A stretch of DNA of 42,324 nucleotides, taken from Escherichia coli (GTDB taxonomy: Bacteria > Pseudomonadota > Gammaproteobacteria > Enterobacterales > Enterobacteriaceae). Made by a program: the position numbers. Positions 33,001 through 39,504 of the stretch are shown in pieces (positions within the stretch are counted from its first letter, which is position 1; each line of letters begins with the position of its first letter). Location of the stretch: NCBI RefSeq assembly GCF_003334785.1, contig NZ_QOWV01000024.1; one strand, written 5' to 3'.

Positions 33001-36000
33001 AAATTCGAAACAATGATAAAACCCCAGTTCGCTGACAGAATCTATTTCTCCAATTGTTTACCCGTTGATCCCACAAGTACCAGACCAACCTATTTTGGTG
33101 ATACCGATGGCTCAGTCGGTGCAGTTTTGTTCGCGCTTTTCGCAACGGGACATTTGGGAATCATGGCTGAAGGAGAAAATTTCCTTAGCCAGTTGCTTAA
33201 TATAGAAGATGAAGTTCTCAACGTATTGCTAAGGGAGAACTTTAATGAGCAACTTAACACTAATGTTAATACAATAATCAGTATCCTGAACAGAAGAGAC
33301 ATTATTTTAGAAAGTCTTCAGCCTTATTTAGTTATTAATAAAGACGCTGTGACGCCATGTACGTTTCTGGGCGACCAAACCGGCGATCGATTTAGCAATA
33401 TCTGTGGTGATCAATTTATCATCGATTTGTTAAAACGCATAATGAGTATCAATGAAAATGTTCATGTATTAGCTGGAAATCATGAAACGAATTGCAATGG
33501 TAACTATATGCAGAACTTCACGCGTATGAAACCACTCGATGAGGATACCTACTCTGGGATAAAAGATTATCCTGTATGTTTCTATGACCCCAAATACAAA
33601 ATAATGGCAAATCATCATGGGATAACTTTTGATGATCAGCGAAAACGTTACATTATAGGACCGATAACAGTCTCTATTGATGAAATGACCAATGCTCTCG
33701 ATCCGGTCGAATTAGCGGCAATTATCAATAAAAAGCATCATGCTATAATTAATGGCAAAAAGTTTAAAACTAGCCGGGCTATCTCTTGTCGATCCTTTAA
33801 TCGTTATTTTTCTGTTTCGACAGATTACAGACCTAAACTTGAAGCACTATTAGCATGTTCACAAATGTTAGGTATAAATCAAGTTGTTGCACATAACGGA
33901 AATGGTGGAAGAGAACGCATAGGCGAAACGGGGACAGTTTTAGGTCTTAACGCCCGTGACAGTAAACATGCTGGAAGAATGTTCAGCATGCATAATTGCC
34001 AAATTAACCCTGGTGCAGGGCCTGAGATAACCACTCCCTGGAAGTCTTACCAGCATGAAAAAAACAGAAATGGACTTATGCCTTTGATTAGAAGGCGCAC
34101 AATGTTACAGCTCTGAACCATAGACAACATGAATATTAATGTTACTATCTGGTTGAGACTGTTGATAAAACGTAAAAAGGAATGCTCTGTTCCTGCAACT
34201 GAACAGGCGTGAAACGCTATCCAACAGGATGGATACCGTTTTGTCAGCCAGTTTTATAGATCACACTTATGAGTATGCGTGTTTCATTTACGGCCAGGAA
34301 TGCTGATGATGACAACATTACTACCCGTTTTCACTAAGCCTTCCCCGTTGGCGCTCAATGCTCTGCGCGCTGGTCGTATTTGCCGTTTCCTTCTTATCCC
34401 GGATGGAAGAATCCGCTGAACGTCGTTCGGCGGCAGTTGTAACACGCGTCGTTTGCTTACAGGGATTATGGCGGGTCGATTATGGATAAGAGTAAGCGCC
34501 ATCTGGCGTGGTGGGTTGTCGGGTTACTCGCGGTGGCGGCTATCGTGGCGTGGTGGCTGTTGCGCCCGGCAGGTGTGCCGGAAGGCTTTGCTGTCAGTAA
34601 TGGGCGCATTGAAGCGACGGAAGTGGATATTGCCAGCAAAATTGCCGGGCGTATCGACACCATTCTGGTGAAAGAAGGCCAGTTTGTTCGCGAAGGTGAA
34701 GTGCTGGCGAAGATGGATACTCGCGTGTTGCAGGAACAGCGACTGGAAGCCATCGCGCAAATCAAAGAGGCACAAAGCGCCGTTGCTGCCGCGCAGGCTT
34801 TGCTGGAGCAACGACAAAGCGAAACTCGTGCCGCACAGTCGCTGGTTAATCAACGCCAGGCAGAACTGGACTCCGTAGCAAAACGTCATACGCGTTCCCG
34901 TTCACTGGCCCAACGAGGGGCTATTTCTGCGCAACAGCTGGATGACGATCGCGCCGCCGCTGAGAGCGCCCGAGCTGCGCTGGAATCGGCGAAAGCTCAG
35001 GTATCGGCTTCTAAAGCGGCTATAGAAGCGGCACGCACCAATATCATTCAGGCGCAAACCCGCGTCGAAGCGGCACAAGCCACTGAACGGCGCATTGCCG
35101 CAGATATCGATGACAGCGAACTGAAAGCCCCGCGTGACGGACGCGTGCAGTATCGGGTTGCCGAGCCAGGCGAAGTGCTGGCGGCAGGCGGTCGGGTGCT
35201 GAATATGGTCGATCTCAGCGACGTCTATATGACTTTCTTCCTGCCAACCGAACAGGCGGGCACGCTGAAACTGGGCGGTGAAGCCCGGCTGATCCTCGAT
35301 GCCGCGCCAGATCTGCGTATTCCTGCAACCATCAGTTTTGTCGCCAGTGTCGCCCAGTTCACGCCAAAAACCGTCGAAACCAGCGATGAACGGCTGAAAC
35401 TGATGTTCCGCGTCAAAGCGCGTATCCCACCGGAATTACTCCAGCAGCATCTGGAATATGTCAAAACCGGTTTGCCGGGCGTAGCGTGGGTGCGGGTGAA
35501 TGAAGAACTTCCGTGGCCTGACGACCTCGTGGTGAGGTTGCCGCAATGACGCATCTGGAACTGGTTCCCGTCCCGCCTGTCGCGCAACTGGCGGGCGTGA
35601 GCCAGCATTATGGAAAAACCGTTGCGCTGAACAATATCACTCTCGATATTCCGGCCCGCTGTATGGTCGGGCTGATTGGCCCGGACGGCGTCGGGAAGTC
35701 GAGCTTGTTGTCGTTGATTTCCGGTGCCCGCGTCATTGAACAGGGCAATGTGATGGTGCTGGGCGGCGATATGCGCGACCCGAAGCATCGCCGCGACGTC
35801 TGCCCGCGCATCGCCTGGATGCCGCAGGGGCTGGGCAAAAACCTCTACCACACCTTGTCGGTGTATGAAAACGTCGATTTTTTCGCTCGCCTGTTCGGTC
35901 ACGACAAAGCGGAGCGGGAAGTGCGAATCAATGAGCTGCTGACCAGCACCGGGTTAGCACCGTTTCGCGATCGTCCGGCAGGGAAACTCTCCGGCGGGAT

Positions 36001-39000: not shown

Positions 39001-39504
39001 GTGCTGATGGTGAAAGGTGTACTGGGCGTACCGATTGAAGGCTCGATCCCGCTGTTTATGCTGGGCGTGGCGCTCAGTCTGTTTGCCACCACGTCAATCG
39101 GCATTTTTATGGGGACGATAGCGCGTTCAATGCCGCAACTGGGGCTGCTGGTGATTCTGGTGCTGCTGCCGCTGCAAATGCTTTCCGGTGGTTCCACGCC
39201 GCGCGAAAGTATGCCGCAGATGGTGCAGGACATTATGCTGACCATGCCGACGACACACTTTGTTAGCCTCGCGCAGGCCATCCTCTACCGGGGTGCCGGA
39301 TTCGAAATCGTCTGGCCGCAGTTTCTGACGCTGATGGCAATTGGCGGCGCATTTTTCACCATTGCGCTGCTGCGATTCAGGAAGACGATTGGGACAATGG
39401 CGTAAATACAATTGCCCGATGCGTAAGCTTATAGGGACTACGCATCGGTGCAATTTATTGAATTTTAGTTGTTTTTAGGCCGGATAAGGCGTTTATGAAC
39501 TGAC

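Follow-up and report, generated by a model that had tools for sequence, protein, structure and literature searches.

Why should an operon of Escherichia coli place a protein annotated as a ribosome-associated ATPase between a periplasmic adaptor and a membrane permease? The question is raised by the yhiI-rbbA-yhhJ locus, which lies in a stretch of 42,324 nucleotides of E. coli DNA (contig NZ_QOWV01000024.1 of assembly GCF_003334785.1), referred to here as the window. Coordinates are those of the window, and features are on its plus strand unless stated otherwise. According to the list of open reading frames (ORFs), yhiI (34482-35549) encodes a periplasmic adaptor of the MFP/HlyD family with 355 residues, rbbA (35546-38281) encodes a protein of 911 residues, and yhhJ (38281-39405) encodes a second ABC-2 membrane subunit of 374 residues. 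The operon is already known and annotated in E. coli and is ordinary in kind. It also belongs to the core genome of the species: when 5426 complete E. coli genomes were searched, every one matched the stretch 34200-39600 at 95-100% identity, and 5414 carry 80% or more of it. Yet RbbA is annotated as a translation factor without support from the sequence.

An earlier sequence-only reading of the window had described the three genes as a translationally coupled operon for an envelope-spanning export machine, and had remarked that such an architecture sits uneasily with the ribosomal label. This tension is real. The evidence discussed below makes it probable that yhiY-yhiI-rbbA-yhhJ, where yhiY is a short ORF in the leader, specifies an export pump of the tripartite type that is driven by ATP and belongs to the ABC-2 (type V) class, and it weighs against the annotation of RbbA as a translation factor. 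If the system is an exporter, it would be a second ABC-2 type tripartite pump in the efflux repertoire of E. coli besides YbhGFSR. Settling the role of RbbA would also correct a persistent mis-annotation, as the protein was still being used as an "E-site binder" in 2025.

RbbA and YhhJ as probable components of an ABC-2 transporter

What kind of protein is RbbA? It matches the NCBIfam equivalog model NF033858 (ribosome-associated ATPase/putative transporter RbbA) with 1596.6 bits against a cut-off of 1050, over residues 12-910 of 911. Pfam places ABC_tran domains at residues 28-176 and 293-436 and an ABC2_membrane_3 domain at 569-903 (2e-39), and the AlphaFold2 (AF2) model has a pLDDT of 84. 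The two nucleotide-binding domains (NBDs) span residues ~12-250 and ~276-500, and the ABC-2 membrane domain spans ~540-905. The description of RbbA as a 911-residue protein with two ATPase domains fused to an ABC-2 permease domain is thus confirmed by Pfam, NCBIfam and AF2. The membrane domain (37163-38260) consists of a first transmembrane (TM) helix, a periplasmic domain of ~130 residues and helices TM2-TM6. Hydropathy gives six TM segments, at residues 559-577, 721-739, 769-787, 798-816, 824-842 and 887-905, and hydropathy together with AF2 places TM1 at ~558-577, the periplasmic domain at ~586-706 and TM2-6 at 718-905.

YhhJ had been read as a separate ABC-2 permease, and its Pfam match and layout agree. 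ABC2_membrane_3 covers residues 25-364 (1.2e-34), the protein matches the membrane domain of RbbA (positions 539-906 of NF033858) with 28% identity, and hydropathy shows the same order of TM1, large loop and TM2-6. Together the two genes supply two NBDs and one transmembrane domain (TMD) in RbbA and one TMD in YhhJ, and they are always adjacent in complete loci. The NBDs score 391.9 bits with TIGR01188 (drrA; cut-off 312.45), and their best sequence matches in the Protein Data Bank (PDB) are ABCA3, ABCA4 and ABCA1. For the whole chain of RbbA the best PDB match is ABCH-9C, an insect lipid exporter, followed by tandem-NBD ATPases; the structure search found no solved structure for RbbA or for its paralog YbhF.

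The operon is colinear with ybhG-ybhF-ybhS-ybhR, which encodes a CecR-regulated ABC-2 exporter with the MFP protein YbhG: an adaptor, a tandem-NBD ATPase and two ABC-2 permeases in the same order. YhiI is 30% identical to YbhG and YhhJ is 24% identical to YbhR. Residues 1-513 of RbbA align colinearly with YbhF at 40-41% identity and residues 539-875 align with YbhS at 32%, so that rbbA corresponds to a ybhF-ybhS fusion. The genes of the paralogous operon overlap as well, by 8 nt at both ybhG/F and ybhF/S. The two systems differ in that RbbA joins the ATPase and the first permease in one polypeptide, and in that the yhiI operon has no adjacent TetR-type regulator and has instead a leader with an upstream ORF (uORF) and Rho-dependent attenuation. 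Tetracyclines, cefoperazone and Na+/Li+ have been reported as substrates of YbhFSR (PMC7190983), whereas no substrate has been reported for YhiI-RbbA-YhhJ.

A scan with one genome per species was used to collect relatives, and the best 80 orthologous loci were listed. Two departures from the ABC consensus are fixed in this family. The H-loop His of NBD1 is replaced by Tyr (Y208) in all 77 RbbA orthologs and in YbhF, and the signature of NBD2 (residues 408-412) reads LPLG(I/Q/M), not LSGGQ, in the same proteins, with LPLGI in the RbbA of the window. The H-loop of NBD2 and the signature of NBD1 (LSGGMKQK) are canonical. As both deviations belong to the same composite site, RbbA is predicted to have one degenerate and one consensus ATP site. 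In its motifs this asymmetry resembles that of many heterodimeric exporters, and we infer the functional consequence.

The ribosomal label of RbbA

Could RbbA nevertheless be primarily a translation factor, a ribosome-bound ATPase at or near the E site that promotes the release of deacylated tRNA, with its membrane domain and its neighbours being incidental? The older biochemistry in favor of this role comes from the Ganoza laboratory, and the literature on RbbA as a ribosomal ATPase stems from one laboratory line. In 2011 RbbA was linked in vivo to YhjD, to the 30S subunit and to translational fidelity; this paper, the main in vivo one behind the annotation, was retracted in June 2025 because of unresolved image concerns. 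It also described rbbA as forming an operon by itself and the protein as having two LSGGQ motifs; both statements are contradicted by the window, where rbbA overlaps its neighbours and NBD2 carries LPLGI. It was the only in vivo study of RbbA on ribosomes with YhjD. A separate study from 2025 treats RbbA as an E-site binder and found that 0.5-1 uM of TM-truncated RbbA raised the yields of some peptides with non-proteinogenic amino acids 1.3- to 2.1-fold in a reconstituted in vitro system; competition with ABC-F proteins was also reported (PMC12096078). The truncated form was used because the full-length protein is unstable (PMC12096078). These effects were obtained with truncated protein at micromolar concentrations, and any tandem ABC ATPase might act alike.

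The structural argument for a translation factor is the presence of two ABC ATPase domains in one chain, as in the ABC-F proteins (EttA, Uup, YbiT, YheS) and fungal eEF3. In Foldseek the tandem NBDs of RbbA superpose on EttA, Uup and PoxtA, although the superposition with the Opp/Dpp tandem ATPases is better. Unlike ABC-F proteins and eEF3, RbbA has a membrane domain, a short unstructured linker between its NBDs, NBDs of the DrrA/ABCA type and a place in a transporter operon. The AF2 model shows no helix in the linker of about 15-25 residues that separates the end of NBD1 (~259) from the beginning of NBD2 (275). The P-site tRNA interaction motif of ABC-F proteins is absent from RbbA, as a linker this short without a helical hairpin does not hold it. 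The NBDs score above the DrrA transporter cut-off, and no ABC-F model occurs among the 25 best of the 190 NCBIfam matches of RbbA.

Other observations also argue against this role. RbbA has six TM helices, and RbbA-mCherry was found to be distributed around the membrane (PMC6788730); rbbA is described as non-essential; and its neighbours are invariably an adaptor gene and a permease gene, with which it is coupled in translation. A primary function in translation is therefore considered improbable.

One candidate link between the operon and ABC-F proteins was rejected. Providencia has an ABC-F ribosomal-protection-like gene on the strand opposite to the adaptor gene and 1.25 kb upstream of it (L010:3877-5619 and L048:3540-5285, both on the minus strand); it scores 349 bits with NF000355, just under the 380-bit cut-off. 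The cluster of neighbouring genes to which it was assigned consists of heterogeneous ABC ATPases at variable positions, and an ABC-F gene is nearby only in Providencia.

The adaptor YhiI and its possible outer-membrane partner

If RbbA and YhhJ form a transporter, how far does the system extend across the envelope? YhiI was said to be a HlyD-type periplasmic adaptor, and the evidence agrees. It scores 118.5 bits with the MFP subfamily model TIGR01730 (cut-off 94.9) and matches HlyD_3, HlyD_D23 and Biotin_lipoyl_2 in Pfam. The AF2 model (pLDDT 90) shows an N-terminal TM helix (residues 3-26), lipoyl and beta-barrel domains, and an alpha-hairpin with helices of 64 and 62 residues (81-144 and 150-211). 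The PDB structures closest to it are those of the adaptors EmrA and MacA, solved within EmrAB-TolC and MacAB-TolC respectively, and AcrA and MexA come next. EmrA is the top structural match (8zal/8zar, E 1e-22) with a sequence identity of only 17-19%; it shares the N-terminal TM anchor, long hairpin, and lipoyl and beta-barrel domains of YhiI, but its partner is an MFS transporter and not an ABC transporter.

MacAB-TolC is similar to the proposed pump in that an ABC transporter works with a membrane-anchored adaptor, which has a long hairpin and an RLS tip, and with an outer-membrane factor (OMF). MacB is a type VII transporter with an N-terminal NBD and four TM helices that forms a homodimer. 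In contrast, RbbA and YhhJ have ABC-2 (type V) domains with six TM helices each, and both NBDs are on one chain; the sole analogous part is the periplasmic domain that follows TM1 and precedes TM2. The likeness to MacAB is thus one of the mode of working and not of membership in the MacB family.

The tip of the YhiI hairpin carries the RLS motif, R138-x3-L142-x6-S149 (34893-34928), found by pattern matching between the two helices. This motif contacts the TolC aperture and docks TolC-type channels in the AcrA and MacA systems. Among 66 sequences, YbhG included, the Arg and Leu of the motif (R138 and L142) never vary, and most sequences have the Ser of S149. The motif is also kept in loci without a linked OMF gene.

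Is there an outer-membrane partner? For the family the answer is affirmative. Clustering of flanking ORFs revealed one recurrent neighbour, a gene of ~500 codons. In 22 of 75 orthologous loci it lies directly upstream of the adaptor and is read in the same direction, and in 12 of these 22 it overlaps the adaptor ORF by 4 nt. Its representative was assigned to the NodT family of efflux outer-membrane lipoproteins, with 354.6 bits to TIGR01845 (cut-off 210). In many bacteria the system thus appears, from gene order, to be a four-gene operon of OMF, adaptor, ABC protein and permease. The E. coli operon is without such a gene. Pumps of E. coli, among them AcrAB, MacAB and EmrAB, usually have their OMF gene elsewhere in the genome, so the partner here would be TolC or another OMF.

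The same facts can be read differently. Transport might be limited to the inner membrane, with the substrate moved across it or out of it, as in lipid flipping or extraction to the periplasm, or the complex might be a mechanotransducer similar to LolCDE or FtsEX, with YhiI as a periplasmic scaffold. The 53 of 75 orthologous loci without an OMF gene would fit such a system, as would the nearest structural relatives, the ABCA, ABCH and ABCG proteins, which extrude lipids or sterols without a duct. Some ABC transporters of bacteria that have no outer membrane are likewise accompanied by HlyD-like adaptors. Against this stand the invariant RLS tip, which loci without a linked OMF gene also retain, the length class of the YhiI hairpin, which is that of the TolC-docking EmrA and MacA, and the OMF gene translationally coupled to the operon in 22 loci; the unlinked genes are, as noted, usual for tripartite pumps. 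A system confined to the inner membrane is considered unlikely, though it is the least unlikely of the alternatives. The export pump that spans both membranes is preferred.

Probable coupled translation of the three genes

The sequence-only reading had given the ORF coordinates and two overlaps, ATGA at 35546-35549 and gATGATGc at 38278-38283, and all of these are correct in the ORF list and the window sequence. At 35546-35549 the start codon of rbbA overlaps the stop codon of yhiI. The rbbA/yhhJ junction (38271-38283) reads AGGAGG-G-ATGATG-C, with a Shine-Dalgarno sequence in the last codons of rbbA, ATGATG at 38278-38283 and the rbbA stop codon TGA at 38279-38281. The yhhJ ORF could start at 38197, 38278 or 38281. 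RefSeq uses the second ATG of the pair, at 38281, which gives 374 residues and a 1-nt overlap with rbbA; the alternative ATG at 38278 gives a 4-nt overlap. The start at 38281 is more plausible, because the AGGAGG at 38271-38276 ends 4 nt before it and only 1 nt before the ATG at 38278.

Overlaps of 4 nt are common in bacterial operons and are unremarkable when taken singly. Here they are maintained in loci from several phyla, and the arrangement of the junctions is under selection. The order of adaptor, RbbA and YhhJ on one strand is the same in every complete locus among the best 80. The adaptor and rbbA genes overlap by 4 nt in 64 of 76 orthologous loci (ATGA in 51, GTGA in 13), and the rbbA/yhhJ junction lies between -4 and +3 nt in 70 of 76; each start in the other genomes was set at whichever in-frame start codon lay closest to the upstream stop, which biases toward small gaps. 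By our rough estimate RTGA overlaps would be expected by chance in fewer than 10 of the 76 loci, as a TGA stop codon, a preceding purine and the right relative frame are all required.

The C-terminal codons of RbbA (K-K/R-Q-E; 38264-38277) read AARCAGGAG in nearly all of the 76 loci, and K908 and Q909 are invariant among orthologs. The Shine-Dalgarno sequence of yhhJ is thus built into the conserved C-terminus of RbbA, and the conservation of these residues may reflect the ribosome-binding site of yhhJ and not the function of the protein. Judged by these junctions, coupled translation of the three genes appears to be a conserved property.

The earlier inference of tight, stoichiometric co-expression is supported in its first part, since the coupling is conserved across loci. 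Equal stoichiometry does not follow from overlapping start and stop codons. In the solved tripartite pumps the adaptors are hexameric per transporter, and a 1:1 ratio is expected for RbbA and YhhJ only, the adaptor being excepted.

The leader and attenuation by Rho

The operon had been bounded at 34482-39405, and this does not hold for the transcription unit, which begins further upstream and has a leader of ~330 nt. A sigma-70 promoter, TAGACA-16-TACTAT, at 34121-34148 is the sole promoter-like match in 34000-39700. Identical hexamers were assigned by genomic SELEX to the constitutive RpoD promoter of yhiI-rbbA-yhhJ (PMC3946193). Eight enterobacterial leaders were compared. The promoter is kept as TAGACA-16-TA(C/G)TAT in E. 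albertii, Citrobacter and Pseudocitrobacter, and the other conserved elements are a block of ~60 nt over the ribosome-binding site and start of yhiY and the first nine codons of this uORF, MMTTLLP(V/D)F.

The uORF yhiY (34306-34419; 37 codons) is annotated in RefSeq and was discovered in a ribosome-profiling study of initiation complexes (bioRxiv 10.1101/511675). Its start and N-terminus are kept in Escherichia, Citrobacter and Pseudocitrobacter, but the remaining peptide is not, and its length varies from 37 residues in Escherichia to 45-46 in Citrobacter and Pseudocitrobacter and 4 in Kluyvera. A conserved C-terminal arrest peptide was considered and rejected, as the FLLIPDG block is conserved as DNA but lies in another frame in Citrobacter, and the Kluyvera uORF has only 4 codons. 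The only stretch of the leader with more C than G, a C-rich and G-poor composition, is inside yhiY. A hairpin of 9 bp, CCGCTGAAC-GTC-GTTCGGCGG (34413-34433, minimum free energy fold), contains the yhiY stop codon and is kept, with U-G/U-A changes, in 7 of the 8 leaders. The uORF stop always lies inside the hairpin, 59-63 nt before the yhiI ATG. The folding energy of the whole leader is no better than that of shuffled sequences (z = -0.21), and the local hairpin at the yhiY stop is the only conserved structure. Rfam gave no meaningful match in 34050-34600; the best was Prion_pknot (E 0.12), inside yhiI.

Published transcript ends agree with termination in this region. Term-seq placed 3' ends at -65 and -43 from the yhiI ATG (34417 and 34439), and the end at -43 was scored as Rho-dependent and flagged "uORF" (PMC7815308 and its supplement). 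A bicyclomycin-sensitive 3' end lies inside yhiI at about 35029, and a yhiI fusion was up more than 2-fold in rho R66S (PMC7815308). Expression of the operon has also been reported to rise when CspD is over-produced. The combination of a promoter, a uORF and Rho-dependent 3' ends upstream of yhiI indicates that expression is attenuated before yhiI.

A similar arrangement exists in mdtU-mdtJI, an efflux operon whose 5' UTR contains a translated uORF, with Rho-dependent 3' ends just downstream; the study of that operon also names yhiY-yhiI as a candidate uORF-dependent Rho attenuator (PMC7815308). The yhiY-yhiI leader differs in that the YhiY peptide is conserved at its N-terminus alone.

Could the leader connect the pump to the ribosome after all? 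An exporter whose cytoplasmic ATPase domains also contact ribosomes, for co-translational handling of peptides or for sensing translation stress, would reconcile the biochemical reports with the transporter architecture, and a translated uORF with a Rho attenuator is a type of control that responds to the behavior of ribosomes. However, no ribosome-binding sequence feature was found in RbbA with the family models or in the AF2 model, the operon occurs widely but its uORF in only a few enterobacterial genera, and the in vivo paper that would support such a role was retracted. A dual role is very improbable, and moonlighting of RbbA on ribosomes is unlikely. A more specific version is equally hard to credit: the tandem ATPases of the pump would dock on translating or stalled ribosomes, the yhiY/Rho switch would turn the operon on when translation is perturbed, and a ribosome-targeting compound or a nascent peptide would be expelled.

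The leader also varies in length. A segment at 34149-34265, between the promoter and the conserved core of the leader, is absent (about 105-117 nt) from E. albertii, Citrobacter and Pseudocitrobacter, where the distance from promoter to uORF is ~80 nt versus 185 nt in the window. The segment is found in 4283 of 5426 complete E. coli genomes (79%), so leader length is polymorphic within E. coli. It was considered as a mobile repeat, and this was rejected because it is present as a single copy and in 79% of genomes.

A proposed mechanism for the pump

How might the parts work together? The envelope-spanning exporter architecture is supported by the family models, colinearity with ybhGFSR, the predicted structures, the RLS motif and the OMF gene linked to part of the orthologous loci. 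In the proposed mechanism RbbA and YhhJ would make up a 1:1 pseudo-heterodimer in which each has one membrane domain and RbbA carries the two ATPase domains. YhiI would be anchored in the inner membrane by one helix and would form an oligomeric periplasmic tube, with its hairpin tips docked on an OMF that in E. coli may be TolC or another unlinked factor. The substrate would be taken from the inner membrane or the periplasm and expelled across the outer membrane. The best guess for the substrate is an amphipathic or lipid-like small molecule.

The three genes would be translated as a coupled unit, with ATGA linking yhiI to rbbA and the Shine-Dalgarno sequence in the last rbbA codons serving yhhJ. 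Transcription from 34121-34148 would normally be attenuated by Rho in the leader and in early yhiI. Ribosomes on yhiY may mask the Rho loading site and open the hairpin, so that the efficiency of uORF translation and termination probably sets the level of read-through. The identities of the genes and domains, the conservation of the junctions, the synteny with an OMF gene, the motifs and the structural likeness are results of the present analysis, and the promoter, the translation of the uORF, the Rho-dependent 3' ends and the membrane localisation are taken from published work. In short, we infer the assembly of the complex, the use of TolC, the direction of transport and the mechanism of the uORF. 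As the leader attenuates expression, over-expression and knockout screens under laboratory conditions would be predicted to show nothing, the pump being silent.

Several points weigh against an export pump. TM-truncated RbbA acts on ribosomes in vitro in biochemical papers, including that of 2025 (PMC12096078). An OMF gene is neither in the E. coli operon nor nearby in 53 of the 75 orthologous loci. Nothing was found to show physically that YhiI, RbbA, YhhJ and TolC form a complex, and the searchable literature, in which coverage did not extend to rbbA in Zymomonas, Burkholderia and Actinobacillus, yielded no substrate or phenotype of the operon. The only mentions found were indirect ones: a docking study, a single nucleotide polymorphism in a genome-wide association study of microcin C, and a large deletion that arose during evolution under paraquat. 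Finally, the identity of 65-72% that RbbA retains across proteobacterial classes is unusual for a xenobiotic pump, and such high conservation hints at a specific physiological substrate.

Distribution of the operon and neighbouring elements

Among the best 80 loci, the identity of RbbA to the E. coli protein is 99% in E. coli and E. albertii, 84-90% in Citrobacter, Pseudocitrobacter and Kluyvera, 75-77% in Providencia and Proteus, and 65-72% in alpha-, beta-, gamma- and delta-proteobacteria and in a few metagenome-assembled genomes of Verrucomicrobia and Planctomycetes. The identity to the alpha-, beta- and delta-proteobacterial proteins nearly equals that to the proteins of Proteus and Providencia. 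No Salmonella, Klebsiella or Enterobacter locus is among the best 80. Within the loci listed, this suggests that the rbbA operon may be patchily distributed or may have been transferred horizontally. At two loci, L025 (12014-17392) and L066 (216-5354), a second, more distant set of adaptor and ABC-2 genes lies beside an rbbA-type operon, with 25-34% identity to YhiI and YhhJ; tandem paralogous systems thus occur.

In the RefSeq annotation yhiJ, yhiY, yhiI, rbbA and yhhJ are all on the same strand and are followed by the convergent ISEc1 transposase gene yhhI. No canonical intrinsic terminator was found after yhhJ. An imperfect inverted repeat of 21 nt, identified by a repeat search directly 3' of the yhhJ stop codon (39405-39459, no strand assigned), is a probable 3' end structure. 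Over 39405-40706 the window contains this repeat and then yhhI, whose product belongs to the ISAs1 family. ISEc1 is variably present in the species, as many E. coli genomes match the query only to about 39405-39490.

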